The notes: generated from the sequence alone by a model not told the origin. 64,000 nt of DNA from an uncultured Halobacteriales archaeon (GCA_964510865.1 CAZEDI010000001.1:2297-66296), one strand, 5' to 3'. Shown: positions 21,767-60,654, numbered from the stretch's first letter. Translations and numbers: made by a program.

Positions 21767-22828
21767 ATGACACCCGACTGGACCCTGAAACAGCTGATGA
21801 CCGAGGTCATCGGCTCGGGCCCGAAGTCCGCCGCGGACATGAATCGCGAGCAAGCAGCCGTTGCCCTCGAGCGAATTTTTGCTGGTGAGCCGGATCCGAC
21901 AACGCTGGGCGCCTTCTTCCTCGCGAACCGCTGGAAGCGAAACACGCCCGAAGAGCTCGCAGCGTTCCTCGATGTGGTTCGTGAGCGTTCGGTCCGTTCC
22001 GCCAAGCCACGTGCCGATCCCGTTGACTGTGGTGCGAACTATGATGGCAAGAACGACACCGCTCTCCTAGGGGCCGCTGCAGGAATCGTTGCAGCAGCAG
22101 CGGGTACCCCGATCGTCGTTCACTCAGGCGATCGGGTTCCCACCCACGAGGCGACGGCCTACAAACACGTTCTCGACGAGTTGGGCGTCGAGACGAACCT
22201 GGAACCAGGTGAAAGCGCCGATATGGTTGACGAGACCGGGTTTGGGTTCTACTCCCAACCGCAGTTCAATCCCGAGATCCACGATCTTCTCGACCGCCGC
22301 CGGGCGATGGGTGTCCGAACGTTTCTCAACACCATCGAAACACTCGCGAACCCCGCACAGGCGCGGATCCACCTCGGGAGCTTTTACCACCTCGCATTCG
22401 CAAAGAAGCTCGCCGAAACGATGGCAGAAAGTCGACACGCAGGCTTCGAACGCGCCCTTTTCTTCCAGGGACTGGAAGGGTACGACGACATCCGCCCGGG
22501 CCACACGACCGTTGCAGAATGGAACGCCGGGTCGGATGACGACCTCGTGGACTACGAAATCCGAACGTCTGCATTTGGCGTGGATGTAACGGAAGAAGAC
22601 CTCGCTGTCGAGGACGTCGCAGTGGACTCAGCGCGACTCACTGAGACGGTCGTGGCGGGCAAACGAGACGACGGTATCGCCGATGCCGTTGCATTGAACG
22701 CGGCACTCCGAATCTACGCGGGAGACGATGTCGACTCGATCGAAGCAGGCCTAGACATGGCACGGAACGCGATCCACGATGGTACTGCAGCCTCCATCCT
22801 CGGAGACCTCCGGTCGTTCTCCGGGTGA
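21767..22828 (+). CDS. Anthranilate phosphoribosyltransferase-like protein (GT family 3, TrpD2/YbiB/CnaT type)
   Basis: TrpD fold with DCGANYDGK replacing the canonical GTGGD PRPP loop; VVHSGD..P; GFGF..Q..F.P. Confidence 0.8.
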   Translation: MTPDWTLKQLMTEVIGSGPKSAADMNREQAAVALERIFAGEPDPTTLGAFFLANRWKRNTPEELAAFLDVVRERSVRSAKPRADPVDCGANYDGKNDTALLGAAAGIVAAAAGTPIVVHSGDRVPTHEATAYKHVLDELGVETNLEPGESADMVDETGFGFYSQPQFNPEIHDLLDRRRAMGVRTFLNTIETLANPAQARIHLGSFYHLAFAKKLAETMAESRHAGFERALFFQGLEGYDDIRPGHTTVAEWNAGSDDDLVDYEIRTSAFGVDVTEEDLAVEDVAVDSARLTETVVAGKRDDGIADAVALNAALRIYAGDDVDSIEAGLDMARNAIHDGTAASILGDLRSFSG

Positions 22829-28799: not shown

Positions 28800-29294
28800 C
28801 TATTTCTCGACCGCCAACAGACACACGCGCTCCACCACCAGGTCACAAAGCGTCGCGTTCGTGGCCCCCCGTTCCTCGTCCGTGATCCCGAAGAACTCCT
28901 GGATGATTGTCTCATCTCGACCCTCGTAATGAACATCGTCATGCCCGAAACGCGCGTCGACCGCCGCAGCTGCAGCGGATTCGTCGCCGCCGTCGAGCAC
29001 GACGACAACCGCGTTCTGGCCCTCATCGACTCCCATTTCGAGCGCCCGCTCGATCTGCCGCCTCCCCGCAGCGTAACAGAGGATCTCTACGGCTCGGTCC
29101 TCGGCGATTGCGTCACCACGCTCGAATGCACGGGTCGCACAGTCGACTGCGGCGGCTAGATGCGCCTGCCCTGCGATGTACCGCGCATCGAATGCCTGGA
29201 TCGTTGTTCCGTAGTCCTCACCGATCGACGCGAGATCCCCGAGAAATGCTTCGACATCCTGGATTGTTCGGACTCCCTCGACGATGCGCATCAA
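28800..29294 (-). CDS. cgi121: KEOPS complex subunit Cgi121
   Basis: [28 protein letters not shown]; ATGA overlap with hel308. Confidence 0.92.
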
Positions 29295-31558
29295 AAATCA
29301 CCGAGGTTGGCCTGTTCTTCCGTTCCGTCGTCCTCAGTTCGGTCCCTGGATGACTCCTCCTCGGACGAACCCTCTGTGGACGCTCGGCGCTCCGCCATCT
29401 CGACGCCTTCCATCGATGGGGTCGATCGACCAGCGTTTTCGAGAATCGTCTCTGCAGTCGCACGTCTTCCATCGAGTGCCCGAAGTATTACAGATTTCTC
29501 AGCCTCACGGAGGTCAGCGGGTGTTTCGACCCCCGCCTCGAAGAGCCGCCGGGCACGCTTGCGCCCGACCTGTTCGATCCTGACGAGCTCGAGGAGTTCC
29601 TCACGTACACCGTGCAGTACTCGCAGACGCGCCTCCGTGATGGGAGCTGTCGGAATGTCGAGTTCGTCAGCGAGCCGTTCGGCAGCGTTGAGCAGCCACT
29701 CCGCCGTCTCGACCTTCCCTCTCACGTCTCCCGGCCCGACACCATAGCGTTCAGTGATGCGATCCTCGTCAGTCTCAGCCGCCCAATCTTCGAGCAGCTT
29801 CGCCGTTTTGAGGGCCGATAGCCAGTCCTCCCACGCGTTTTCGAACTCCGAGGGCATTCTGCCCAGGAATTCCTCCTCGCGCTCGTATGCGATCTCGGTA
29901 TAGGTCTCTTGATCGCCGGAGCGCAAGTAGAGTTCGTACATGTCAGGCGTCCTCGAGACCAGATGATACATCCCGAGGGCAGTTGGTTCTCTCCCCTCGC
30001 GATCAGCGTGTGCGAGGCCATCGAGTATCTCCGCCGCACTCATCGGGTCGAGATAGAGCCGTGATACGGTGTGGCCGATAGCGGTGGCAGTGAGTCCATC
30101 GCCGTCACGTTCGAGGAAGTCGTTCGCTTCGAGATAGTCGAGCACGCCGTCCGAGACATCGGCGAGTCGTTGGGGATCACTGGTCTGTGCCGCATACAGC
30201 GTCTCGTCGAGGAACTCGAGGAGTGCCGACCGAGAGGTGGCAAACCCCGTGGCCACGGCCGCGAGTACGTGTGTCCTGAGCGCGGGTTCTGCCGCAAGTT
30301 TCGAGCGTACCGGCTCCGGCTCGGCGTAGAGATACCGATCGAATAATTCGTCGTACTCGTCGTGGCTCGAAGCCAAGAGTAGTGCTTCCCCATACGGATC
30401 GAGTCCCGGTCGGCCAGCCCGCCCCATCATCTGATGAACTTCTAGTGTGTCGAGTGGCGCCATGCCTCCTCGCGAGGCATCGTATCGACGCCAATCCCGG
30501 ACCACGACTCGTCGTGCCGGGGTGTTCACCCCTGCTGCCAGCGTCGGCGTCGCACAGATCACTCTGATCGCGCGCTCCCTGAACGCGTCCTCGACGAGTG
30601 AGCGGTGACGATTCGCCAATCCGGCATGGTGAAATGCTGCCCCACGTTCGACTGCGTCCGCCAGGTCCCGACTCGTCTCCGTATCGCTTACCTCCCGGAT
30701 CTCGTCTGCGATGGTCCCGAGTGCGTTTCGCTCGCCTGTGTCCAGGAATGGCTCGACGGCACTGGCGAGCCTGCCCGCGGCAGCCTCGGCGTTCCGCCGC
30801 GAGTTGACGAACACCAGCGTCGACCCGTCTTCAGAGAGCGTATCGCGCACGATCGCTTCCGTCTGTTTCCTGCCCTCCGTGGGGAGCTCGTGTTGCGAGC
30901 CGTCGGCGAACGTGATCGCCCCCCCATAGTGAACACCCCGCCGGAGCTCTATTGGTCGCCAGGTCGAATCGACGAGCGAGGCGTCGAGCCAGTCCGCGAT
31001 CTCGTCCGCGTTTCCAATCGTCGCCGAGAGCGCGACGACCTGTGGGTCCAGCCGCTCCCTGAGCTTTGCAAGTGTCACCTCCAACGTTGGCCCCCGCGTG
31101 GCATCGTCGACTAAGTGGACCTCGTCAGCGACAACACACGAAATCCGGTCGATCCAGGAGGCGTCGTTTCGGACGAGAGAATCGACCTTCTCGCTCGTCG
31201 CGACGACGATGTCCGTTGCCGCGAGCCAGTCGTCAGTACTCTCATAGTCACCCGTCGAGACTCCGACGTCGATCCCGAGTTCCTCGTACGCAGCGAACTC
31301 GCCTCGCTTTTCGCTTGCGAGCGCCCGGAGCGGGACGACGTAGAGAGCCATCCCACCGCGCTCGATCGCAGATAGCATGGCGAGCGTAGCGATCAGTGTC
31401 TTCCCACTCGCGGTTGGCACGCTGGCGACGAGGTTCTCGCCCGCTGTAACACCTGCATTGACTGCATCCGCTTGCGGTGGATACAACTCCTGGACTCCTT
31501 GCTCCTCGAGGAGCGTTGCCGTCCCGTCAGGGAGTCCCGGGACCGACGCAGGTTCCAT
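29291..31558 (-). CDS. hel308: Hel308 (Ski2-like SF2) DNA helicase
   Basis: [39 protein letters not shown], HhH tail. Confidence 0.95.
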
Positions 31559-36546: not shown

Positions 36547-38325
36547 CTACCGAAGTGCGTTTAACCTGAACTCGAACGCGACGACTGGTACCTCGAGCCC
36601 ATGCTCGACGAGAACCTCGGGATGAATCTCGCCGATAACGCCCACGTGGGCACCGTCGATCACGATATCGGCGACACGTCCATCCAAGAACGTCGGGTGT
36701 TCGGACGCTGGAGTCTCGAGGTCTGCATCGAACCGCCGACAAAGGGCTTGCAAGCGTGCCTTCATATCCTCGTAGGATGCGTCGTGCCGTGCCAGCGCCG
36801 CTGCCACGGTCCGCCACTCGGCGACGTTCGTATTCTCCGTGTGATCCTCACGGGCCACGAGCCCAATCTCCGCAAGATCTTGCGGATAGGCACGATGGGT
36901 ATTGTTCGACAAGACGGTGAGAATCGATGGAAGTGCCCACGTCCTGACGATCTCATACTCCTCGGAGTAGGGTTCGGTGATCCTGACAGGCTTGCCCGTC
37001 CCGACAGTATCACCAGTACCCCAGGGTGGTCGGGTCGGCGTCCCATCATCCGGCGCGAGGCGCATCGTATCGAAGGTCCCGGCTTCGCTGACCAGGTGAA
37101 AGTTCAGCACGTCTTCGAAGCCAAGCCCCACGAGCAGCTCTCGGACCGCTCGCTCGTGGCGCGCGCGTTCGTGTCGACTACCGACGGTCGAGACGTCGGG
37201 ATAGCGCGGGTCCAGTTCGTTGAATCCGAATGCGCGCCCCACATCATCCACGAGGTCGACCGGGTGGAGGACATCTACGCGATATGGGGGAATGCGCACG
37301 TCATATGCGATCTCGTCATCGCCGACCTCCTTCGAGGTTGCATCAAGCCCCGAACGCTCGAAGAGGTCGATTGCGTCCTCTGGGTCGAGGTCAATTCCGA
37401 GGATAGTTTCGATGCTGCGATGGTCGACCGTTTTTTCATCCACGGACAGCTCAGGACGCTGCAGCTCATGGCCCTCGTCCGGGGAAATCGCGTCATCAGC
37501 GTACTGAACCTCGACAGCTTCGACCTGGCCACCACGGGCATCGAGAGCGTAACAGACGATCGTGAGCATCTTGTCGATCGTCCATTGATCGGTACCGGTC
37601 ATCTCGATGAAGAGGTCCCGCGAATCCGTCGAAACTTCGGTCCGGCGACCGTTGATCACTGGCGGGAAGGAGAAGAGCCCGAGGTCGTCATAAATCGCGG
37701 GAAGACGCTCATAGCCGGCCACAATCGGGGCGTACTCATCGCCTATCGGATGGCGTTCGAGAACCTCCCCCGGTGTCATCTCCTCGTCCGAATCGAGTGG
37801 GACGAACGTATCCTCGGAAGGCTCTAGCCCGGTATAGCGGATCGACTTCTCCCGTGCACCCTCCCCTGCACCTGGTGCTCCCTTGAGCATCGTCTGGTCG
37901 TGGACGCCGTTGGCGCCCTTCACCCGTGCTCTCCCCATCGTCGCATGCAGCTTCTCCTGGAGCTGGATCAACGACTCTAAACTCCGCTCGTCGAGGTCGA
38001 GCCCCCTGACAACCGCGCCCGTGACGTATGGACGCTGTGTGGGGACGGATTCGTCGACATATATCGTCCAGTCCGGGTCCGTGACCATGGGACGGTAGAC
38101 GCCTCGGTCGTCACCGTACTGGTAGCGAAGCGAGCGAGCCACTCCCTCGACGGAGAGGCGATCGAGCCTGTCCGGTTCGAACTCGAACTGGAGTTCGCCG
38201 TCCTCCGTGTCACCTTCGAACTCGAGTCCAAGGGCAAAGAGGTCGGACTTCAGCTGATCCTCACTCTTGTCCTCATGACCGATAAGCCGACGGAGTTCGT
38301 CCGGGTCGACGTCGACCGTCGGCAT
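36547..38325 (-). CDS. pheT: Phenylalanyl-tRNA synthetase beta subunit
   Basis: PDRLDRLSVEG.AR, LIQLQEKLH, FPPVIN, D.LHPVDL.DDV, GEIHPEVL. Confidence 0.97.
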   Translation of the reverse strand: MPTVDVDPDELRRLIGHEDKSEDQLKSDLFALGLEFEGDTEDGELQFEFEPDRLDRLSVEGVARSLRYQYGDDRGVYRPMVTDPDWTIYVDESVPTQRPYVTGAVVRGLDLDERSLESLIQLQEKLHATMGRARVKGANGVHDQTMLKGAPGAGEGAREKSIRYTGLEPSEDTFVPLDSDEEMTPGEVLERHPIGDEYAPIVAGYERLPAIYDDLGLFSFPPVINGRRTEVSTDSRDLFIEMTGTDQWTIDKMLTIVCYALDARGGQVEAVEVQYADDAISPDEGHELQRPELSVDEKTVDHRSIETILGIDLDPEDAIDLFERSGLDATSKEVGDDEIAYDVRIPPYRVDVLHPVDLVDDVGRAFGFNELDPRYPDVSTVGSRHERARHERAVRELLVGLGFEDVLNFHLVSEAGTFDTMRLAPDDGTPTRPPWGTGDTVGTGKPVRITEPYSEEYEIVRTWALPSILTVLSNNTHRAYPQDLAEIGLVAREDHTENTNVAEWRTVAAALARHDASYEDMKARLQALCRRFDADLETPASEHPTFLDGRVADIVIDGAHVGVIGEIHPEVLVEHGLEVPVVAFEFRLNALR

Positions 38326-39827
38326 TAGTACGTCACCTCCTCTGTCCGCAAATACTCGAGATCGACGAGCGTGCCATGGACGTCTCGGATGTCTTCTGCT
38401 CCAGTGACGAGCATCATGAGCCGTTCGAGGGCGAGCCCCCAGGCCATCACATCGGCATCGACGTCGAGCGGCTCTAGCATCTCCGGGCGAAAGATCCCCG
38501 AGTTCCCGACTTCGATCAGCTCGTCCGTCTCGGGGTGGGTCCCGAAGAGTTCAAAGCTCGGCTCCGTATAGGGATTATACGTCGGCTTGAACCGCAAGTC
38601 TGTAATGCCGAAGTGTTCGTAAAATTCGGTGAACGTTCCCATCAGATCACGGACTGAGAGGTCGTCAGCCATCACCCACCCTTCGATCTGGAAGAACTCG
38701 AGTAAGTGTGTCGCGTCGATCTCGTCGTTACGATAGGCTTTCTCGACGGAGAAGAATCGCCGAGGTGGCTCCAGCTCGCCGAGCGCCTCACCAGCGAGGT
38801 GGCGGGCAGATAGCGACGTCGTGTGACCCCTGAGATCGATCTGGCGGGCCATCTCTTCGCCCCACGGGGAGTGGTATCCATCGCCGTCAGGACCGACTCC
38901 CTCCCTATGCGCGGATTCGACCCGTTCGACCAGCCCTTCCGGGAGCTCCTGCATCCGGGGAACCTTGAGTGCGAACTGATCCCAGTGTGTCCGTGCAGGA
39001 TGGTCCTGGGGCATGAACAGGCAGTCGTTGATCCAGAATTCCGCGTCCGCGTGTGGACCCTCCATTTCCTCAAAACCCATGCCGACGAGAACGTCTTTCA
39101 CGCGTTCTGCCATCCGCCGGAGTGGATGGGTGCTCCCGCCGTGCATGATTTCGGCGTCCGCGGCGACATTATAGGCAGCGTAGTCTGTCGTGTCCCACGA
39201 GCCACTCGTTAGGGCCTCGGGAGTCACTCGGTCAACTTGCTCGCGAACTTCGATCCCTTCCATGAGTGCCGTCACACCGTCGTCGGTGAGGGTTGCGGAT
39301 CGAGTCGTTTGCTCGGTACGTTCGATAAGCTCGCGTCGCTCAACGTGCTCCAGGACGTCCTCGTCGGCGGGCTCACCGGAACGAACCGCCTCAAGGGCGC
39401 GTGCGTCTGGATCCTCGTCGGGATGTCTCTCTGGATTCGCGGTAATCTCGCCCCGCTCGATCTCCCCATACTCCTTTCGGGCGTAGTTCGCCAGTGCGAT
39501 GTCGACCTGATCACCGTCGAGTCCTGCCTCGTCGATAGCATCACCAAGGGGGACCGGCTCCGACTCCCCACCGAGTTCGAGCGTGGCCCGGTAGAGTCTA
39601 ACCTCGGGAAGCCCGGTTTCGGCGTATTCGGTACCCTCCCCCGTGAGTGAGATATCCAACGCGACCCCTTCTTGGAGTGCGATGAGGCCCGCTTCCTCCA
39701 GCGCGAAGAGTGCACCGGTGACTGTCTCGGGCGGGAGCTCCGTTTCGTCGGCGAGCTGTTCGACTGACATCGATTCGGTCGCGCTGGCCGTCTCGAGTAT
39801 GGCGGCCTGCGCCTGTGGGAGTTGCAT
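38325..39827 (-). CDS. pheS: Phenylalanyl-tRNA synthetase alpha subunit (archaeal)
   Basis: QDHPAR, LRGHTT, YRNDEIDATHL.EF.Q, YNPYTEPS, GNSG.FRPEM, WGLALERL. Confidence 0.97.
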   Translation of the reverse strand: MQLPQAQAAILETASATESMSVEQLADETELPPETVTGALFALEEAGLIALQEGVALDISLTGEGTEYAETGLPEVRLYRATLELGGESEPVPLGDAIDEAGLDGDQVDIALANYARKEYGEIERGEITANPERHPDEDPDARALEAVRSGEPADEDVLEHVERRELIERTEQTTRSATLTDDGVTALMEGIEVREQVDRVTPEALTSGSWDTTDYAAYNVAADAEIMHGGSTHPLRRMAERVKDVLVGMGFEEMEGPHADAEFWINDCLFMPQDHPARTHWDQFALKVPRMQELPEGLVERVESAHREGVGPDGDGYHSPWGEEMARQIDLRGHTTSLSARHLAGEALGELEPPRRFFSVEKAYRNDEIDATHLLEFFQIEGWVMADDLSVRDLMGTFTEFYEHFGITDLRFKPTYNPYTEPSFELFGTHPETDELIEVGNSGIFRPEMLEPLDVDADVMAWGLALERLMMLVTGAEDIRDVHGTLVDLEYLRTEEVTY

Positions 39828-39934
39828 AGGTTGTTGTCCGTGTTCGTGTCGTGACTGCAGTTAGCCCTTGCGAGTCCATAGCGCCAACGAAGGCGGTTTC
39901 ACCCTCCGACCGCCGGAGACGTCCACCGCCCGAT

Positions 39935-40021
39935 TCAGCTGAAAACGAAAAATCCGAATCCCAGAAAACACTCACGATCAGGCCCATCGACACAGCTCGC
40001 ATGGCGGGATTCGGGTGCCAT
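39935..40021 (-). CDS. Putative Phe-rich leader peptide (uORF) of pheST: MAPESRHASCVDGPDRECFLGFGFFVFS
   Basis: Hand-translated. ATG at 40021, TGA at 39937-39935, 5 Phe among the last 10 codons, ends 107 nt before the pheS ATG. Confidence 0.7.
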   Translation of the reverse strand: MAPESRHASCVDGPDRECFLGFGFFVFS

Positions 40022-40043
40022 ATCTCTCCAACCTGGTGACGAG

Positions 40044-40051
40044 AATAAAAA
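40044..40051 (-). promoter_or_regulatory. TATA-like box (TTTTTATT) of the Phe-leader/pheST transcript
   Basis: Lies at -30..-23 from the uORF ATG, the spacing expected for a leaderless haloarchaeal mRNA. Confidence 0.55.
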
Positions 40052-40077
40052 TGTACCGACAATTAGGTCACGCTGAC

Positions 40078-41376
40078 TCAAGCACCAGCTGTCGTGACCT
40101 GGACCGTAGTGCCGGTCACTTCGACGTCAATGAGGTTGTAGAACCCCTCGTTACCTGCCAGTATAACCGTCACATCGTCGGATATTCGTTCGATGGACAC
40201 TTCGAACTGGTCATCCACGGCATTGCGTTCCTCCGCATACGTTTCCATAGCGTTCATAAACTCATCCGCCTCACTGGGACTGTCCCATCGGTGGGCCCAC
40301 ACGACGCCCCGTGATTTGTTCTGGTAGAAGGACCTGAGGACCGCAATCTGATCAGTCCCCCACCCATCAGCTGCGGCTGCAGCCTCGTCGTCAGAGAGAT
40401 ACTCCTCCAAGACGAATCGGGTTCCGAGCTCGCCTCGCGGCCGCCGTGGATCCGGAAGCAAGGACGCAGCATGCCCGTCGATTTGCGGTTGGACGCGATA
40501 CCAATAGGATCCCGCCGTTATGTTCATCTCGAGCTCGAGCGGTTCGTCCGAGTTCTGGTGCAGGATCTGTTCCGTCGTCTGCACGGGGATGTCGCCCGAG
40601 AAGAAGTCAACGAGACCCGCGGGGGAATCCAAGGTTTCCTGGAAGTATTGCATACCTGGGCGTGATCGTTCTACGTTGTGCCATTTCTCCCAGACTGATG
40701 CATCGTCACTCCACTCGGGAGCGATATCGAGGTTCTCCCCTTCGTGATACTCCTGGGCATATGCCTGCTGGATGTAATTGACACTCCCACGAATCAGCGT
40801 ATTCGGCATGAACGCATCTTCATCTTCAGTTTCCGCGAGGGGGCCATCGATCCATCCGGTGTCGACGTTGAACGTCGTCCAGTTCTGCTGGTACATGTAC
40901 GCTCGGAAGAACTCCCCTGCGATCATGGACTGGAGTTCTGCATCGGATGCCGAATTGACGTATGAGATGTTGACGACGATTTCCTCTTCGAGCGAGTCAT
41001 ACATGTAGGGCGGCTCAACCATCGTAGATTGTGGAGAGGGAAGCGGACCGGTAAGCGCTCTGAGGAACAATCCCGACGCATTCGTGTTCCTGTTGAGGCC
41101 CGTCCCGCGATACACGACATCGATATCTGGGTACTCCGCATCGTCAATACCGGTCATCTCCTCGACGCGCTCATAGATCGTTACTGGCGAGACTGAGAGC
41201 TTAGAGGAGATCTCTTCAGATGCATCGACACTCGGACCACTGTCTCCCAGGAATGGCACTCCACTGCATCCTGCGAGAATCATAGAGAGGACCACCATTG
41301 ATACTAGTGAAATGGATCGAATTGTCTTCGGTCCCCCCGCCTGGTCATCACGTGCCGTGTCGTCAGTCACCCGCAT
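40078..41376 (-). CDS. Hvo_1808-like surface lipoprotein with degenerate zincin motif
   Basis: Lipobox ILAGC, RGELGT, AAAAADGWGTD, WAHRWDSPSEADEF. Start at ATG 41376 is uncertain. Confidence 0.7.
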   Translation of the reverse strand: MRVTDDTARDDQAGGPKTIRSISLVSMVVLSMILAGCSGVPFLGDSGPSVDASEEISSKLSVSPVTIYERVEEMTGIDDAEYPDIDVVYRGTGLNRNTNASGLFLRALTGPLPSPQSTMVEPPYMYDSLEEEIVVNISYVNSASDAELQSMIAGEFFRAYMYQQNWTTFNVDTGWIDGPLAETEDEDAFMPNTLIRGSVNYIQQAYAQEYHEGENLDIAPEWSDDASVWEKWHNVERSRPGMQYFQETLDSPAGLVDFFSGDIPVQTTEQILHQNSDEPLELEMNITAGSYWYRVQPQIDGHAASLLPDPRRPRGELGTRFVLEEYLSDDEAAAAADGWGTDQIAVLRSFYQNKSRGVVWAHRWDSPSEADEFMNAMETYAEERNAVDDQFEVSIERISDDVTVILAGNEGFYNLIDVEVTGTTVQVTTAGA

Positions 41377-41557
41377 GTCATCGTGAAAGGAGCACCCTCT
41401 TGTAAACATTTCTTTACCGCTTTCTCCGTGAAATTGCCAGTACATCGGGTTCGCTCCGCTTCACAAGTGATACCTTGCCGAAGCGGTCCCGGGTCCCAGT
41501 CTCGACAGGATTTCATGCCGACCTTCTCCCACAGCGTGGACGAAGGGGATATATCCG

Positions 41558-43138
41558 TCAACCCCGTCGTGTCGCCGCTACGTCCAGTTCAATATCGAGG
41601 TTCTCGAGCATCGCAGCCACGTCTTCTCGTTTTCCCTGGTGTTCTGCCAGGAACTCCTCCATCAGTTCTGCAGCTTGCTCCTTACACCCCCCACAGAGGC
41701 GATCACCACCGACACACTCGTCATAGACGCGTGTGGCAAACTCATCGTCGTCGCCTGCGAGCAAGTACGCGTACAACTCATAGACTGGACACTCGTCGGC
41801 CCGCCCACCGAGTTCGCGCTGGAGTTCCGCTGTCTCGCGACCGCCTGTCGTCGCGGCCAGTACCTTGTCATATCCTTCTTCGGGGTCGTCTAGCAAGCTG
41901 ATGTGGCTTGCGGGCACGGACGAGCTCATCTTTCCTCCCGTCAGTCCCGTCATGAATCGGTGATAAATGGACGAGGGCGCGTAGAATCCGTAGCCACCGT
42001 GTGCGACCTCTATTTCGCGGGCTAGCTCTTCGGCGTCGTCCCTGTCGAGGTCAAATGCGTCGACATGGGCTTCATATACCCGTTTTTCACCGTCGACTGA
42101 TTCGATCAACGCGGCAAATGCGTCCTCCGTTGCGTTGCGATCGAGGAAGCGAACGCGGGGACGGAGAGGTTCGTTGCCAGCGGCATCGAGCTTCGTCTCT
42201 ACTGACGACCGCACGGTCGACTCCTCGATGTTCGTTCGGAGCCAGTCTGCCGCTTCCTTACATCGAATCGGGTCCTCTGATTCACCCCGAAGCGTTTCGT
42301 ACGCCTCCGCGAGGAGGGTGCGCTCCGCGGGCTCGACTTCGAAACTCGCGTACGCCTCAGTGACACCGAAGTACCTCGTTCGAGCGGCGAGGTCGCGTGC
42401 CAGACGCATGTGCGGGTCCTGATCTGGTCCGACGGGAATCACCGTCGGCTTCGGCTCTTCGAGCTGGGGATACAGGATATCGGCCATCTGCGTGACGACG
42501 GACTGCATGTGCGCGACGTCCGTCTCGCCGTCAAAACCGTAGATTGCACCCAGCTCCGAGAAGTTTGCCTCGATGCCGAGCTCGAATGCCAGATCCTGCA
42601 CCTCTCTGTTTGTCGACTGACGGTACAGTTCGCCGGCCTCGGGATCGAACCCGAGTGCGAGGAGCGAGAGGAGGTAGTCCGTGGCATGCTGGTCGATCTC
42701 CTCCCAGGTGAGTCCCCGTGCAGCGTGCGCCTCGAGATCGGCGATCAGGCCGTAGGCCTCCGCACCCCGCTCCTGATGCCAGATGAGCTCGTCGAAGACG
42801 AGTTTGTGCCCGATATGGGGGTCGCCTGTGGGCATGAACCCCGATAACGTGGCGACGGGCTCGTCGTTCCGCATCGCATCAAGGACCCGTCTGTAGTCGC
42901 GATGTCCGAAAATGACGCCGCGGCGCATCAGGTAGTGTGGGTCCGGAACCTCGGGGAGGATCTCGTCGAACTCCCCAATGCCGAATTCGGTGAAGAGGTC
43001 CGCGTAGTCCCCAATCGTGGCCGAACCCCATGGATCCAAGACGACGTCGTCGGCACCTGTTGCCGTGCCGCCATCGGATCTAGGTTGCTCGTCGGCGGAT
43101 GCATCCAGTTCGTCCGTTGTATCGTGGTCGTGTGTCAT
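41558..43138 (-). CDS. trpS: Tryptophanyl-tRNA synthetase
   Basis: SGFMPTGDPHIGH (HIGH), VPVG.DQDPH-type motif PVGPDQDPH, GGKMSSS (KMSKS). Start at ATG 43138. Confidence 0.96.
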   Translation of the reverse strand: MTHDHDTTDELDASADEQPRSDGGTATGADDVVLDPWGSATIGDYADLFTEFGIGEFDEILPEVPDPHYLMRRGVIFGHRDYRRVLDAMRNDEPVATLSGFMPTGDPHIGHKLVFDELIWHQERGAEAYGLIADLEAHAARGLTWEEIDQHATDYLLSLLALGFDPEAGELYRQSTNREVQDLAFELGIEANFSELGAIYGFDGETDVAHMQSVVTQMADILYPQLEEPKPTVIPVGPDQDPHMRLARDLAARTRYFGVTEAYASFEVEPAERTLLAEAYETLRGESEDPIRCKEAADWLRTNIEESTVRSSVETKLDAAGNEPLRPRVRFLDRNATEDAFAALIESVDGEKRVYEAHVDAFDLDRDDAEELAREIEVAHGGYGFYAPSSIYHRFMTGLTGGKMSSSVPASHISLLDDPEEGYDKVLAATTGGRETAELQRELGGRADECPVYELYAYLLAGDDDEFATRVYDECVGGDRLCGGCKEQAAELMEEFLAEHQGKREDVAAMLENLDIELDVAATRRG

Positions 43139-43176
43139 TGGTCGTCGTGTCGGGTGCTCGGCAGGCGATTCGATCG

Positions 43177-43210
43177 AAAAAGCGGAGGGAGCATCGCGTT
43201 CCGGCCCCCT
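43177..43210 (-). terminator. Candidate attenuator: 7-bp hairpin plus U5 tract between the Trp uORF and trpS
   Basis: On the - strand, AGGGGGC (43210-43204) pairs with GCTCCCT (43192-43186), followed by CCGC and TTTTT (43181-43177). Confidence 0.45.
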
Positions 43211-43287
43211 TAGATCTGTCCGGCCAGAATCGCGAGACTGTCCACTTCCCGGTTCGCGTGCCAGGGCCAGGTGGAAGTGGACGGCAT
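43210..43287 (-). CDS. Putative Trp leader peptide (uORF) of trpS: MPSTSTWPWHANREVDSLAILAGQI
   Basis: Hand-translated. ATG at 43287, TGG at codons 7 and 9, TAA at 43212-43210, ends 71 nt before the trpS ATG. Confidence 0.65.
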   Translation of the reverse strand: MPSTSTWPWHANREVDSLAILAGQI

Positions 43288-43312
43288 ACCCACCCATATC
43301 GCCAGATGACGC

Positions 43313-43321
43313 TTATATTTT
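43313..43321 (-). promoter_or_regulatory. TATA-like box (AAAATATAA) of the Trp-leader/trpS transcript
   Basis: Lies at -34..-26 from the uORF ATG. Confidence 0.55.
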
Positions 43322-43459
43322 GCCCATTCGGCGGATCGGGGTGAGTGACCCTATATCAACTCCCCGAATATGTCGGTCGTTGAGGGTATCGTGGACGCAA
43401 CCCACAGACGAGATACGCGAAGATGCTGACCGATTGTGACAGGGCCGTCAGCGTGTCGG

Positions 43460-44482
43460 TCAGGGGGTAAGCCGGCCGACAGTGATCCACTCCACGTCAC
43501 CTCCATCACGGACGAGAGCAAACATGGCCTGCTTTCTAACGCCTCCAGCGAGCCTGATGTACAGTGCGAGTTCTCTGGGTTCGAACGCGTACTCGCCGGG
43601 CAATACCCAGACAAGCATTTCGGAGTGTCCGAGCTGGGAGACGGTCGTTATCTCCGCATACGTACGGAAATCCGCACCGAACTTGAACCCTGTTTTCGGG
43701 ACGACTCCCCCTGTCCGGAGTGCTTCGTAGACCGTCAATCGTCGATTGAAGCGCTCACCCTCGACAATTCGCCCGCGCTGGAGCACCTCGTCTCGCCCTT
43801 CGTCAATGGTTAGGACGTCGCGTGCAAGGTAGGCGGCCTCGAGGAGCGAAAGTTGGAGTGCGTCGGCCTCCTCACGACCCTGGAGCGGTTGCCCGTAGAA
43901 CCCTCGATCGTACAGTCCAGGTGGTGGGTCGGGGACGAGCACGCGGTCAGAGAGAAGAATACCCGCTGTCTGCGGGGGACTGAATGTGGTTGTCCCCTCT
44001 GGAGCTCCCCGTCCCGACTCGAAGTAGCTTACCTCACCTTCTTCGTCGACGACGGCGAGTGCGATATCACCGAGATTCCGGGCTGGAAGTGTCGTGCGCT
44101 CGCCGACCACGCGGAGCTGGTGTGCGACCGTTCCATCGGGGGGCGAGGCGCCACGCTCAAAGACGGTATAGTCAGCATTCGGATGCGGATCGGTCACCCA
44201 CCCCGCCCGTGCGGGGGCGAGATAGATCCCTCGAGAGCGGAGGTCCGCGTACGTCAGGAACCGGGCTCCTACACCCTGTTCCTGAATCGATTCGAAGAAC
44301 GCCACGAATCCGTCCCCGTCGACAGCCGTCAGATCTCCCCGAAAGAGCAGGTGGGCGGCCTCGACAGGGGCCAGTGCGATCTCGTTTCCCTCGAGTGGTC
44401 GCCCGTAGCCCCGTGCGTCGTGGAGCCGTTGTCTGGCATCACCTCCGACCACGACCACGTCTCCCCGTCGCTCGCCGTCCAT
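43460..44482 (-). CDS. endA: tRNA-splicing endonuclease (alpha2 type)
   Basis: Duplicated EndA fold, L.LSLLEAAYL, VPKTGFKFGADFRTY, H.E, AGGVRK. Start at ATG 44482. Confidence 0.95.
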   Translation of the reverse strand: MDGERRGDVVVVGGDARQRLHDARGYGRPLEGNEIALAPVEAAHLLFRGDLTAVDGDGFVAFFESIQEQGVGARFLTYADLRSRGIYLAPARAGWVTDPHPNADYTVFERGASPPDGTVAHQLRVVGERTTLPARNLGDIALAVVDEEGEVSYFESGRGAPEGTTTFSPPQTAGILLSDRVLVPDPPPGLYDRGFYGQPLQGREEADALQLSLLEAAYLARDVLTIDEGRDEVLQRGRIVEGERFNRRLTVYEALRTGGVVPKTGFKFGADFRTYAEITTVSQLGHSEMLVWVLPGEYAFEPRELALYIRLAGGVRKQAMFALVRDGGDVEWITVGRLTP

Positions 44483-44537
44483 GACCGGACTGACGCAGGG
44501 AGGGGGGAAATCACCTGCGCTCCAGGTACGAGAACCG

Positions 44538-45263
44538 TCACCCCGACGAACACGCGGCGTCCAGACATCGTGACTCTCCTCGGACGACGAAACGTGGGAG
44601 ACCGCAGTCGCACTGGTCATCGAGAACGCCAGCGGGGAGCGAGTATCCCGTCTCACAATCGGGATAGTGCTCACACCCAGCTATGAGTCCTCCTCGACGA
44701 AGGATGCGGAGGTCCCCGCCACAGTCGGGACAGGCCCACTCCCGATCGAATCGCGCTTTGACACGTTCGTCCAAGGATTCGCAGCGTCGATCGACACAGA
44801 CCTCGAACACCTCGCCACGAGTGACGCGCATGTGGGGGAGGTCACACGTCGTACAGCGTTCGTCGAGGATACTGGCGTCCCGTGGGACGACATGTCTAAC
44901 CTCGCAGTCCACACATCCGATCGCCCCTCGCTCATCGACGAGCACCCCGTCACACTCGGGGCAGGCACCTGCCGGAGATCCGGCGCGTGTCGTTCGATAG
45001 CTCCCGTTCCCGTGCTCGGCATGGCAGGTGATAATCAGCCGTCTGCCGTTGTCGACAGCGTCAAGGCGGCTATCACCGTCGTGCCAAGCCACCGACTCCG
45101 CGCGAGTCAGCCATGCGACTGGTCGGTAGCCGTCACTGTCGTGAACGAGGACTGTGCCATCGGGCTTTGCCACGACAATAACTGCCCCTCGCTCCTCTCG
45201 CGTTTCTTCTCCTTCGTATCGTACGGTGCAATCGCCAGCCAGTACGCGCGTTGCGTCTGACAT
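44538..45263 (-). CDS. NucS N-terminal-like domain fused to topoisomerase-type C4 zinc fingers
   Basis: GDCTVRYEG...KPDGTVLVHD.DGYRPVAW followed by four Cys clusters (e.g. CPDCGG...GCEHYPDC). Confidence 0.8.
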   Translation of the reverse strand: MSDATRVLAGDCTVRYEGEETREERGAVIVVAKPDGTVLVHDSDGYRPVAWLTRAESVAWHDGDSRLDAVDNGRRLIITCHAEHGNGSYRTTRAGSPAGACPECDGVLVDERGAIGCVDCEVRHVVPRDASILDERCTTCDLPHMRVTRGEVFEVCVDRRCESLDERVKARFDREWACPDCGGDLRILRRGGLIAGCEHYPDCETGYSLPAGVLDDQCDCGLPRFVVRGESRCLDAACSSG

Positions 45264-45309: not shown

Positions 45310-47649
45310 TTACGTCACCTGGACGGTTCGCGTTACACAGAACGTCTCCAACGGGAGGTCGGGGATGGTTACCTCAACCGCATAGTTGAGTTCGTCGTCG
45401 TCGGGCGGGCCGAACAGGGCGATCGGCACGGTGAGGCTCCCATCGAGGTATGCCTCTTTCGCGGTCATCTCCGTCCCATTTACCGTGACTCTCGCTTCGA
45501 CACGCGCCCGCCCACCGTTTGTCCGTACTGTCACCTCGCGGATGTCATTCTCCCCTCGGGCGATCGTCTCTGGGAAATCTCCCCATTTTACCTCGAGTAG
45601 AGGGAGCTCGCGCGCGTTCTCGAGAACGCGTTCGGCAACACCATCTGCAAGCCCAGCATCGACAAGCCCTGTGACACCAGCGTCCCGTACCGCATCGGGC
45701 GTTGTGATTCCCTGGTCTGCCAGTTGGTGGGCTCGTCCCGCGCCGACCCCATCGATCGCAGTAAGACCGACCTCATCTGCGGACACGCCGTGTTCGAGTC
45801 GGGCTTCGACTCGCGCGACGGCGTTTGCTGCCCGAGCGGATCCGAAACGAGCTGCGAATGCCCCGAGTGCGGCAAGCAACCTGAGGGCGTTTCGGCGAAT
45901 CACCCACGCATCGCTTTCGAGCTCGTCGGGGACGGACGCTCGAAGACTGCCACGGAGGATTGCGAGAACTTTCCGTGTCCCTTGATCGAGGTCGCGCTCG
46001 CCGATCACAGATCGGACTGCGTCCCGTTCGTGACTCCGGGCACTTACGCTGTCGAATTCGCTTGCCCGTGAAACGACCTCCAGAATCGCGTCGGTCTCCA
46101 GGGCGTCCGCATCGTCGACGAGCGCGTGGAATCGCTCGGCCGTATCGAGCCTGAGGTAGAATTTCGAGGCGAGTTGACCGAGCGAGGTCGCTTCCAATCC
46201 GAGGTCGTCGTTGGTTTCGACGAAGCCACGCGAGACGAGTGTCTCGAGTGTTGCGCGCACCCGATTTCGCAGATCACCGAAACCGTACTCGTCGGGTTTG
46301 CTCTGTGCACGGACGAAATAGAAGGTTGTCTCGAGCCAGTCCATCACGTCCTCGATGCCGCGGATCGTCCCCAGCGCGATCTCGGCGACGAGGTGTGAGT
46401 CCAATTCCTCGGCGAGTCGGGATTCGAGTGGCTTCCCCTCGCGGAGAAGGTCTCGGTACTTGTCGGCCTCCGCACCGTCACAGACGACCCAGCCATAGCC
46501 CACGTCGTCGTACTCCGGCCGCCCCGCCCGCCCGAGCATCTGGAGGACGTCGATCGGGCTCATGTCTACCTCTCCTTCGAGGGGATCGTGGAGCTTTGTA
46601 TCCCTGATCACCACACACCGCGCGGGCAGGTTCACCCCCCACGCGAGTGTCGAGGTCGAGAACATAACCGCGATCTTTCCCCCGCGGAACCACTCCTCGA
46701 TCAGGTCTTTGTCGTTTTTCGAGAGGCCGGCATGGTGGAATGCGACGCCATCAATAACCGACTGACGGAGGGTTGAATTCTGGAGCGCTTGGGTCGCCTC
46801 GTGAAAGTCGAAATCGCCACGTGATCCCACCGCGATGTCCCGTTCGCCGATCTCGTCTCTCGCTTTTTTGGCTGCCTGCACGGTATCCTGCCGCGAGGAG
46901 ACAAATACCAGGGCCTGTCCATCATCCCGTACGTGGGGATCGACGAGATCGAGTGCCCGGTAGAGCCGTCTGTACTTATCCGCGAACGCGTTCTCGCCGT
47001 GAGCGTATGTTTCCACGCCCGCGTGGAGGTCGACGGGTCGATACTCGTCGCCGAAGTCGAAGGTTGCCTCCGGAGGAGCGTCCAACCATTCAGCGACGTC
47101 GTCGACATTTTGCATCGTGGCAGACAAGGCAACAATACGAGGAGCGCAGAGCCGTCGCAATCGCGCAATCGTCACCTCGAGGACGGAGCCCCGTTTTTCC
47201 GAATCGAGCAAGTGGACCTCGTCGATGACACAGCAGTCGACATCGGTGATGAACTCGTATCTGCTCGAATCGTGCTTTCGGGTGGCGGAGTCGAGCTTTT
47301 CCGGCGTCATCACGAGCACGTCTGCACGTTCCGCTCGTCTCGGAGTGAGGTCACGCTCGCCCGTGACCACGTACACGGAGTGACCAATATCTTCGAAGCG
47401 ATCCCACTCCCGCTCTTTCTCGTTCGTCAGTGCTCGCATCGGGGCGACGAAGAGGGCAGTTCCTCCCTCGCGAAGCGTCTCACAAATGGCAAGTTCGGCA
47501 AGCGCGGTCTTCCCTGACGCGGTCGGGGCACTCGCCACGACATTCATATCGGCGTCGAGGATTGCAGGTAGCGCGACACGCTGCATCCTGTTAAATGAAT
47601 CAAACGGAAACGCCTCGGCGAATTCGGGGATGACCTCGGCAACCTCCAT
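45310..47649 (-). CDS. Second Ski2-like SF2 helicase with Sec63-like/HhH C-terminus
   Basis: PTASGKT, DEVH, ALSAT, FHHAGL, TLAWGVNLP, QMLGRAGRP. Confidence 0.92.
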   Translation of the reverse strand: MEVAEVIPEFAEAFPFDSFNRMQRVALPAILDADMNVVASAPTASGKTALAELAICETLREGGTALFVAPMRALTNEKEREWDRFEDIGHSVYVVTGERDLTPRRAERADVLVMTPEKLDSATRKHDSSRYEFITDVDCCVIDEVHLLDSEKRGSVLEVTIARLRRLCAPRIVALSATMQNVDDVAEWLDAPPEATFDFGDEYRPVDLHAGVETYAHGENAFADKYRRLYRALDLVDPHVRDDGQALVFVSSRQDTVQAAKKARDEIGERDIAVGSRGDFDFHEATQALQNSTLRQSVIDGVAFHHAGLSKNDKDLIEEWFRGGKIAVMFSTSTLAWGVNLPARCVVIRDTKLHDPLEGEVDMSPIDVLQMLGRAGRPEYDDVGYGWVVCDGAEADKYRDLLREGKPLESRLAEELDSHLVAEIALGTIRGIEDVMDWLETTFYFVRAQSKPDEYGFGDLRNRVRATLETLVSRGFVETNDDLGLEATSLGQLASKFYLRLDTAERFHALVDDADALETDAILEVVSRASEFDSVSARSHERDAVRSVIGERDLDQGTRKVLAILRGSLRASVPDELESDAWVIRRNALRLLAALGAFAARFGSARAANAVARVEARLEHGVSADEVGLTAIDGVGAGRAHQLADQGITTPDAVRDAGVTGLVDAGLADGVAERVLENARELPLLEVKWGDFPETIARGENDIREVTVRTNGGRARVEARVTVNGTEMTAKEAYLDGSLTVPIALFGPPDDDELNYAVEVTIPDLPLETFCVTRTVQVT

Positions 47650-59773: not shown

Positions 59774-60054
59774 GTTTCTACAGCCGGGCAAGCCTGGACA
59801 TAGCTCTTGTGACACAGAACAAGACCCGCGTGTTGTGTACCGAGTGAAGTATCATGATCGAAGACAGCAGATAGCCCACAACATCCTGGTTTCAGCTAGG
59901 TGTGTCTTCGTATCTTATCGAAAGGCTATGAAAATCCGATTATGTACATAAAATCCGCTGAAAACATTGCAATATTCTCCCATTCTTAAATCCAGCACTA
60001 TATATGTATTATCATACCCCGTATAATACTGCAAAACTCGTATAACCCCATCCG

Positions 60055-60654
60055 ATGCCCCCCAGACGAGGTAGGTCCCCGAAGAATTGGAAATTTTTCT
60101 TCGGCGTAGCCATCGGTGTCGCGCCCGTGGTCATACTAGGCGGTGTCGATGCGAGTGCGCTGGAGGTCGGAATACTCTTCGGAGACGAGCAGGATCCACC
60201 TGCCACGCTCGGAAACCCATTTTACATCGAATCTGACGATGTGGAGTATCTGAACCGAATCTTCAGCGAACGGACTCACGAGATTGGATACTGTATCTCT
60301 CTAGACGGCAATACGCTCTCGTTTTGGTTGGCGGATACGATGACAGCAGCCGAAGGATCGCTGAAAATGGAGGCGTCGAACTGTCCACCAGACATGCAAA
60401 CAGCAACCGCGCACACACATCCAAACGGAAGAATCGGTCTCTCGGAGCAGGATCAGTCGACCCTGGTCATGAGCGGCGGATGGATGATGTGCATTCACGC
60501 AGGGAGGCTTAACCGTGAGCCGGGGACCGAATTGAAGAACATTGCCTGCTATATGAAAACGGAGAACGGCGGCATAGCGCAGATACCCATCCGCGTTGCA
60601 GGCTCTGGAGAGGAGACACCACAAACTCTCGGAGGGTCTCAATGGGGCGCATAG
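60055..60654 (+). CDS. Membrane-anchored JAMM/MPN+ domain protein
   Basis: N-terminal hydrophobic helix, E (HEIGY) and HTHPNGRIGLSEQD, which fits H-x-H-x7-S-x2-D. Confidence 0.7.
   Translation: MPPRRGRSPKNWKFFFGVAIGVAPVVILGGVDASALEVGILFGDEQDPPATLGNPFYIESDDVEYLNRIFSERTHEIGYCISLDGNTLSFWLADTMTAAEGSLKMEASNCPPDMQTATAHTHPNGRIGLSEQDQSTLVMSGGWMMCIHAGRLNREPGTELKNIACYMKTENGGIAQIPIRVAGSGEETPQTLGGSQWGA

Follow-up and report, generated by a model that had tools for sequence, protein, structure and literature searches.

The window analysed here is a 64,000-nucleotide stretch of DNA from an uncultured Halobacteriales archaeon (GCA_964510865.1 CAZEDI010000001.1:2297-66296; G+C content 59.7%), and our subject is the pair of short leader regions that lie upstream of trpS and pheS-pheT, its genes for aminoacyl-tRNA synthetases. 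On the minus strand the genes follow one another in the order endA, trpS, a gene for an Hvo_1808-like surface protein, pheS and pheT. The order endA-trpS-(x)-pheS-pheT is found again in many Halobacteria, and the window holds no further aminoacyl-tRNA synthetase genes. An exact-sequence look-up found no record of the window TrpS or PheS. The nearest relatives of PheS come from uncultured organisms (74-77% identity), and the nearest named ones from Halapricum and Halorhabdus. The genes are:

43460 to ~44482, minus strand: endA, tRNA-splicing endonuclease.
41558-43138, minus strand: trpS, tryptophan--tRNA ligase, 526 aa (NCBIfam NF008928, 982 bits).
40078-41445, minus strand: gene for the Hvo_1808-like surface protein.
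38325-39827 and 36547-38325, both minus strand: pheS and pheT, respectively (NCBIfam NF003210 and TIGR00471).

The original prediction, made from this DNA alone, held that trpS and pheST are each preceded by an upstream open reading frame (uORF) carrying codons of the cognate amino acid, with a TATA-like box in front of it, a perfect stem within it and a spacer before the main ATG. All of these elements were found where it had placed them. The features of the Trp leader in the window are:

43312..43320, minus strand: TATA-like box AAATATAAG of the predicted Trp-leader promoter P1, read from the sequence and aligned with GGAAACGGTTAAAC in relatives.
43210..43287, minus strand: Trp leader uORF MPSTSTWPWHANREVDSLAILAGQI, ATG 43287 to TAA 43210, 25 codons plus TAA.
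43273..43282, minus strand: arm A GTCCACTTCC, uORF codons 2-5, pairs with arm B.
43240..43249, minus strand: arm B GGAAGTGGAC, partner of arm A and, in the alternative fold, of segment D.
43190..43239, minus strand: hairpin T2, across the uORF stop codon, from the consensus structure.
43176..43186, minus strand: segment D UCCGCUUUU, with a T5C tract (a T-stretch ending in C) at 43181-43176.

Those of the Phe leader are:

40044..40052, minus strand: TATA-like box ATTTTTATT of the predicted Phe-leader promoter P1 (consensus of relatives cgNAACGCTTTTG).
39935..40021, minus strand: Phe leader uORF MAPESRHASCVDGPDRECFLGFGFFVFS, ATG 40021 to TGA 39935, 28 codons plus TGA.
40006..40014, minus strand: 5' arm of helix H1 CCGAATCCC, uORF codons 3-6, covaries with the 3' arm.
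39954..39962, minus strand: 3' arm of helix H1 GGGATTCGG, G-F-G codons, covaries with the 5' arm.
39941..39958, minus strand: Phe-codon run, the sole U-rich tract of the Phe leader, with T5C at 39952-39947.
39892..39931, minus strand: helices H2/H3, beginning 4 nt past the uORF stop and containing a GA-rich internal loop that is conserved (CGG-UGGA ... GAAA-CCG).
39858..39873, minus strand: conserved block tcGcAAgGGCTAACTG (consensus tcGGAACcGcTAACTGaC), a probable proximal pheS promoter P2 resembling a B recognition element (BRE) and TATA box, or an element of the untranslated region (UTR).

In the Trp leader, the centre of the TATA-like box lies ~27-29 nt before ATG 43287, the two W codons occupy 43269-43267 and 43263-43261, arms A and B form a perfect 10-bp stem (GTCCACTTCC, 43282-43273, with GGAAGTGGAC, 43249-43240), and a spacer of 71 nt separates the uORF from the trpS ATG at 43138. 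In the Phe leader the box is ~28 nt from ATG 40021. The uORF has five F in its last 10 codons (end FLGFGFFVFS; F codons 39967-65, 39958-56, 39952-47 and 39943-41), the H1 arms form a perfect 9-bp stem (CCGAATCCC, 40014-40006, with GGGATTCGG, 39962-39954), and the spacer to the pheS ATG at 39827 is 107 nt. The idea of one layout common to both units holds for these shared elements and fails for the sensor codons: the 3' end of the Phe uORF, with the only U-rich tract of that leader, holds the Phe codons, whereas the loop of the first Trp hairpin holds the Trp codons. The Trp uORF ends ...CAG ATC TAA and so contains AGATC (43216-43212, minus strand), described as a weak coding-region termination motif in H. 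volcanii (PMC7237163); this motif is not conserved in other Trp leaders.

For the comparison between species, a single TrpS scan of species-representative genomes yielded 64 Halobacteria loci (63-80% identity), 41 of which reach the pheS start. A strict filter (ATG uORF of 18-34 codons with at least two F in the last 10) was passed by 31 of the 41 and by the window, and a Phe leader was recognisable in 38 of the 41, spread over many Halobacteria families. It was also present in the four closest uncultured relatives (L185-L188) and in one metagenome contig (L115). The other seven recognisable leaders deviate in some way: a GTG start (L018), a longer spacing (L054), a lost stop (L022 and L023), a single F (L030), a frameshift or T9 run (L034) and a palindromic insertion (L038). 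Three loci (L020, L060 and L063) lack the leader. The test set out beforehand, namely whether orthologous regions keep uORFs, cognate codons and covarying stems, thus gave a positive answer. In the Halosimplex metagenome-assembled genome (MAG) of L054, a direct repeat of ~70 nt (GGGGCTCCCCGCTCGCATCGTCGAGGCGCTCACTTCGTTCGCGCCTCGC, twice; ~9180-9490) stands between the Phe hairpin and the proximal block, giving a leader of ~440 nt. In the Haloquadratum MAG of L038 (~9000-9190), an insertion resembling a miniature inverted-repeat transposable element (CTCATACTGTCTATTGTC...GACAATAGACAGTATCAGTGAG) splits the Phe uORF; the H1 arms, the F-run and H2 remain.

The uORF consensus reads MASEP, ~15 variable codons, GFGFFF and stop. 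At the nucleotide level, the order is promoter cgNAACGCTTTTG, ATG GCA YCC GAA YCC, ~15 unconserved codons, GGG TTC GGC TTC TTC TTC, the stop codon, CGGYGGA, a variable hairpin, GAAACCG, a variable insert of 0-130 nt and tcGGAACcGcTAACTGaC. Length differences in the unconserved middle part of the uORF are multiples of three. Most of 30 loci have the TATA centre at -28 relative to the uORF ATG, a placement that fits a transcription start at that ATG. The in-frame stop (TGA, TAG or TAA) falls 3-11 nt before the CGGYGGA of H2 in nearly all loci, while stops in the other frames are scattered.

RNAalifold predicted that H1 pairs uORF codons 3-5 with the G-F-G codons and that H2 (CGG:CCG) encloses the variable H3 and a conserved 4x4 GA-rich loop. 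Across 29 sequences, 88% of the cells of the Phe helices were paired, compared with 29-50% when the partner was slid, and compensatory changes were found in 15 of 19 pairs, values reached by 0 of 500 shuffles. In H1, one pair is AU in 20 sequences and GC in 7, another CG in 17, UA in 9 and UG in 3; in H3 all five pairs show compensatory changes. In L186 (CAAAUCCC/GGGUUUG) H1 carries a compensatory change and Phe is kept through TTC->TTT. In many species, L005 among them, H3 abuts both strands of the GA loop, giving a symmetric 4x4 loop. A K-turn (L7Ae-binding) reading of the CGG-YGGA/GAAA-CCG loop was considered and rejected: tandem GA pairs are possible, but many species lack the 3-nt bulge. 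Also rejected was a helix between the GGAACCG block and the 3' arm of H1, as it comprises 5 bp only and shows no covariation in clades with GGGUCCG arms.

The helix arms account for the MASEP and GFG residues, and the Phe run lies outside every helix; the only conserved peptide segments lacking an RNA-helix explanation are the F-run of the Phe leader and the W repeats of the Trp leader. The T-rich run is read as Phe in the uORF frame in 36 of 39 recognisable leaders (binomial test against 1/3). Its codons are TTC (87) and TTT (23), against 16 other pyrimidine-only codons, with T nearly always in positions 1 and 2 and C or T in position 3 (TTY periodicity), and TTT is enriched 3.4-fold relative to neighbouring genes (p = 5e-6). 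A T5-6 stretch followed by C occurs within the F-run in 18 of 32 Phe leaders, where codon usage predicts 13.5% (p = 1.6e-8); several have (TTC)3 only, with no T5 run. None of the 32 leaders has a run of four or more T from the uORF stop to the pheS ATG.

The P2 block lies 33-79 nt before the pheS ATG, most often 34 nt, and its sequence GGAACcGcTAACTG resembles the BRE/TATA elements of P1, GGAACGCTTTTG and GGAAACGGTTAAAC. Since this block is kept even where the uORF is absent, pheS probably has a promoter of its own: by sequence, P2 is probably a proximal promoter for basal pheST expression, to which the leader would add an inducible component. The block may instead play a role as RNA.

Trp uORF homologues before trpS were found at 11 genome loci and on four metagenome contigs. 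The latter came from a scan with a 17-mer of the Trp leader, whose 120 matches, mostly chance ones in soil and marine contigs, contained four real leaders and one remnant. Three of the four have trpS demonstrably downstream and one ends at the contig edge. In all, 15 Trp leaders are complete, each directly preceding trpS, and one more, in L139, is cut off by the contig end. The homologues share the pattern M-x-AS-(x)-W-R-W-R-W-...-E-A/V-D-S-L-A-..., comprise 24-29 codons and lie at about -150 to -70 of trpS. Their W count varies from 1 to 4 by in-frame 6-nt units, (TGG CNC)n. The frame of the uORF is conserved; its phase relative to trpS is not. The remnant is on the minus strand of metagenome contig L180 (~1386-1450, reverse-complement). 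There, an intact promoter, ATG, arm A, pair of W codons and arm B are followed by what appears to be the antisense of a coding region, with no T2, D or trpS.

In these Trp leaders, 94% of the A:B cells are paired, compared with 32-47% with the partner slid, and the sole variable position (alignment column 10/56) is GC in 8, AU in 5 and GU in 2. Every homologue has its stop codon within the T2 loop or close to it. Segment D resembles arm A, and B:D is 97% paired versus 54-70% slid, with no real covariation; its T-tract is T4-T6 followed by C in most leaders and T2-T3 only in some. In simulations, the free leader RNA had pairing probabilities of 0.59 for A:B (pAB) and 0.33 for B:D (pBD). With a ribosome footprint placed on the W codons pBD rose to 0.73 and the unpaired fraction of the U-tract fell from 0.41 to 0.17 (p = 0.004), and with a footprint on the stop codon pAB was 0.69. 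A:B and B:D are thus predicted, on these models, to have the geometry of a two-state switch read by ribosome position.

The trpS frame is open for 159 nt upstream of the conserved start, to an ATG at 43297 (window 41558-43297, minus strand). This ATG lies upstream of the predicted transcription start site, and a gene caller could give a 579-aa TrpS that engulfs the leader. Such an N-terminal extension was rejected, given that the phase between uORF and trpS varies, 7 of 15 leaders contain an in-frame stop and the extension is not conserved. A PheS entry of 541 aa (P0011) is, by appearance, an over-extension of the same type.

That the leaders are real and far above chance is confirmed. We scanned ~1 Mb (the 64 loci and the window, both strands) for a TATA-like box followed by a short ATG open reading frame (ORF) in which at least three of six residues are one rare amino acid; of 43 matches, 33 were these leaders before pheS or trpS. 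Open frames of ~27 codons are common in GC-rich DNA, and single-sequence folding energies are ordinary (z = -0.98 and 0.01), so that support comes from comparison between species and not from thermodynamics. A chance origin of the uORFs and stems in the window, which these two facts would suit, is refuted by the conservation, the covariation and the unbiased scan, and we regard it as vanishingly improbable. Further leader copies in the compared loci amounted to chance pattern matches within coding regions (e.g. L014).

A scan of 39000-44000 against Rfam 15 (E <= 10) returned no T-box and no other relevant family, and bacterial promoter and terminator scans found nothing relevant. Eight uORF peptides had no NCBIfam match, two sub-threshold matches to unrelated Pfam families (PNRC and DUF6882) and no match to a leader-peptide family. 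The original prediction knew of no experimentally established case for haloarchaeal synthetase genes, and our literature search likewise found no archaeal leader-peptide attenuator, nor any archaeal aminoacyl-tRNA synthetase whose expression is regulated. Some 5'-UTR small ORFs (sORFs) are, as the H. volcanii small-proteome paper remarks in passing, reminiscent of leader peptides, and the H. volcanii Term-seq paper makes no mention of leaders or attenuation.

From these features we infer translation of the uORFs, stalling, termination and a sign of the response, and consider it fairly likely that both leaders are cis-acting, attenuation-like leader-peptide sensors of tRNA charging. Given the ~28 nt between TATA centre and ATG, P1 would give a leaderless transcript beginning at the uORF AUG. 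When Phe-tRNA or Trp-tRNA is scarce, the ribosome would slow at the cognate codons of the uORF; its position would set the shape of the leader RNA near the sole U-rich tract, and that shape would in turn set the share of P1 transcripts that reach the synthetase gene. The A:B loop holds the W codons of the Trp leader, and a ribosome stalled there would separate A from B, allowing B:D to form and burying the U-tract. With the ribosome at the stop codon, or with none, A:B would form, and the T-tract, which is T5C in the window, would stay unpaired. Directly 3' of H1 in the Phe leader, the UUY codons make up the U-tract, in many cases as T5C, and a stalled ribosome would cover it.

An exposed U-tract would allow termination, either intrinsic or through aCPSF1/FttA, and a hidden one would give read-through. 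In vivo, T5C gives ~95% termination in H. volcanii, where many 3' ends have a hairpin no more than 10 nt upstream (PMC7237163). FttA/aCPSF1 needs U-rich RNA (PMC11616081, PMC8716108), and it has been proposed, still as a hypothesis, that the ribosome excludes FttA (PMC11616081). Termination at T5C, U-rich recognition by aCPSF1/FttA, the simulated switch and the placement of the U-tracts together lead us to favour a model in which starvation would hide the U-tract, permit read-through and raise synthetase expression. A fuller version of this proposal is possible, although we hold it only tentatively: the leaders may represent the first ribosome-mediated attenuation in Archaea, extending across the class Halobacteria for pheST and confined to a clade for trpS, in which leaderless uORFs would act as sensors, access to the U-tract (T5C, aCPSF1/FttA) would be the read-out, and the Phe sensor codons (UUY) would be the very nucleotides of the termination signal.

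Several points weigh against this model. In the Trp leader, the stalled state pairs the T-tract, and B:D with T2 beside the U-tract would be a terminator by bacterial rules, giving the opposite sign of response. In the Phe leader the difficulty is one of timing, as RNA polymerase is past the U-tract before the F codons are reached by a ribosome, except where termination depends on a factor or follows a pause; and no conserved alternative pairing was found there in the consensus fold or by footprint masking. The GA-rich loop is near-invariant yet plays no part in the proposal. The RNA elements persist beside a broken or Phe-poor uORF in three loci (L030, L034 and L038). The P2 block is kept in L020, L060 and L063, all of which lack the uORF, and the leader's share in pheS expression may therefore be small. 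The Trp leader is absent from most species. In 28 of 57 loci trpS lies within 100 nt of endA and has no leader, and among the 57 loci no W-rich uORF was found before endA in the endA-trpS operons. On this account the Trp leader is, judged from these sequences, restricted to a clade, a subset of Halobacteria. The statistical tests count related species as independent, and the p-values are therefore optimistic.

Some of the same observations could be read differently. A stalled ribosome in the same kind of leader-peptide sensor could, in place of setting termination, affect how translation of the synthetase mRNA initiates or how that mRNA decays, on the pattern of the leaderless poly-Cys sORFs of mycobacteria, whose architecture matches the one predicted here (10.1101/834739); the Phe leaders with (TTC)3 and no T5 run, and the Trp leaders with only T2-T3 at D, would fit such a mechanism. 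However, masking the F-run or the stop codon left the predicted accessibility of the pheS AUG unchanged (0.57, 0.565 and 0.586; p = 0.45), and neither a Shine-Dalgarno-like element nor a conserved pairing with the start region was found in the leader alignments, so we judge this rather unlikely. A model of sequestration and unmasking of the ribosome-binding site (RBS) of pheS was rejected, there being no predicted effect of the footprint on accessibility of the AUG region. The near-invariance of the CGG-YGGA...GAAA-CCG loop, for which translation does not account, raises another idea, that the leader is a structured RNA bound by a protein or other factor (the synthetase itself or a GA-motif binder) and the uORF a by-product of the helices. 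The MASEP/GFG and xAS/EADSLA segments of the Phe and Trp peptides are indeed encoded by helix arms, and L030, L034 and L038 have damaged uORFs beside intact RNA elements. Against it stand the TTY periodicity with its synonymous TTC/TTT changes, one of which compensates a helix change, the variation of the W repeats by in-frame units, the uORF ATG at the predicted transcription start, and the retention, 3-11 nt before H2, of a stop codon that differs in identity between loci. No Rfam family matches, the GA loop of many species lacks the 3-nt bulge of a K-turn, and we consider the idea unlikely to be correct.

It is also conceivable that the uORF units are independent small genes or small RNAs with terminators of their own and that the synthetases are transcribed from proximal promoters only, with no regulation in cis. 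T5C motifs could end short transcripts efficiently, and a P2-like block is kept in species without a uORF. The linkage, orientation and match of the cognate amino acid to pheS or trpS, however, hold across families despite differing synteny, no copy of the Trp leader was found elsewhere except one truncated remnant, and a functional small protein is unlikely because the mid-peptide sequence is unconserved. Independent units of this kind are, in our estimate, unlikely. The tRNA-charging sensor remains the reading we prefer for both leaders.

Other features of the window lie apart from the leaders. The endA ORF (43460-44674, minus strand) is open for 404 codons, and because homology to tRNA-splicing endonucleases begins only at residue 65, the true start is probably internal, near 44482. 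Two Hel308/Ski2-like helicase genes lie less than 16 kb apart: the one at 29291-31558 (minus strand) scores above the NF002654 cut-off (1131 bits), and the one at 45310-47649 (minus strand) is a divergent paralogue below it (393 bits). At 21767-22828 (plus strand), a TrpD-like paralogue (anthranilate phosphoribosyltransferase family), below the trpD cut-off, adjoins a uroporphyrinogen-III C-methyltransferase gene, and the region upstream of the paralogue had no flagged W-rich uORF. An A+T-rich intergenic stretch at ~59800-60150 contains several short Y-, F- and I-rich ORFs that pass the rare-amino-acid filter, none of which is conserved in the compared loci.

The haloarchaeal leaders share the logic of the bacterial pheST, trp-type and mycobacterial Cys systems, and not their sequence, anatomy or machinery. 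In E. coli and other gamma-proteobacteria, pheST is likewise preceded by a short Phe-rich leader ORF (PheM) with hairpins just upstream of pheS-pheT (PMC1262725), and the presumed logic, in which the ribosome reports the supply of Phe-tRNA, is alike. In contrast to PheM, the transcript here would be leaderless and start from an archaeal TATA/BRE promoter, the uORF has 25-32 codons and the archaeal termination machinery is different. The Phe codons here occupy the uORF's 3' end, where they double as the only U-tract, whereas codons of the PheM type precede a separate terminator. A GA-loop hairpin after the stop codon and a probable second promoter are further differences, and there is no sequence homology. 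Attenuators of the trp type (trpL, and candidates before Streptomyces trpS; PMC1262725) resemble the Trp leader in their tandem Trp codons within a short leader ORF, in mutually exclusive pairings at a U-tract, which for the Trp leader are predicted, and, in the Streptomyces candidates, in their position before trpS. Unlike in trpL, the W codons here lie in the loop of the first hairpin, the predicted stalled state pairs B with the U-tract itself, competition is among A, B and D beside a constant hairpin in place of the 1-2-3-4 scheme, the uORF would be leaderless, and the element belongs to a subset of Halobacteria.

The mycobacterial leaderless poly-Cys sORFs ('Cys ribulon', bioRxiv 10.1101/834739) consist of a leaderless short ORF with a run of cognate codons that acts in cis on downstream genes through stalling, as proposed for our leaders. 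They are bacterial, their stalled ribosome opens a duplex that hides the RBS, which is not predicted here, and their targets are Cys metabolic operons and not synthetases. The T-box riboswitches of bacterial aminoacyl-tRNA synthetase genes place a synthetase under control of tRNA charging through a 5' leader, as proposed here. The haloarchaeal leaders have no specifier loop, T-box sequence or Rfam match, and sensing would proceed through the translating ribosome and not by direct binding of tRNA. In Rho-dependent leader-peptide attenuators, e.g. of the tnaC type, a stalled ribosome or an alternative pairing hides a site for the termination factor on the nascent RNA. The logic proposed here is the same, and the factor would be aCPSF1/FttA acting on U-rich RNA (PMC8716108, PMC11616081).

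Mechanisms of cis-regulatory RNA are very sparsely documented in archaea. The tRNA-charging sensor reading is well supported by the sequence comparisons, and would, if validated, be the first such variant in Archaea. Because the leaders are short, adjoin essential genes and are found in cultivable genera (Halorientalis, Natrinema, Halobellus and Halobaculum), they are directly testable. If the proposal is true, it would account for the occasional upstream extension of pheS and trpS by gene callers, supply amino-acid-responsive parts for haloarchaeal genetics and make both transcription-translation coupling and the action of aCPSF1/FttA readable in a natural system that is genetically tractable. 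It would also mean that sensing of the attenuation type operates with a eukaryote-like transcription apparatus and leaderless mRNAs.

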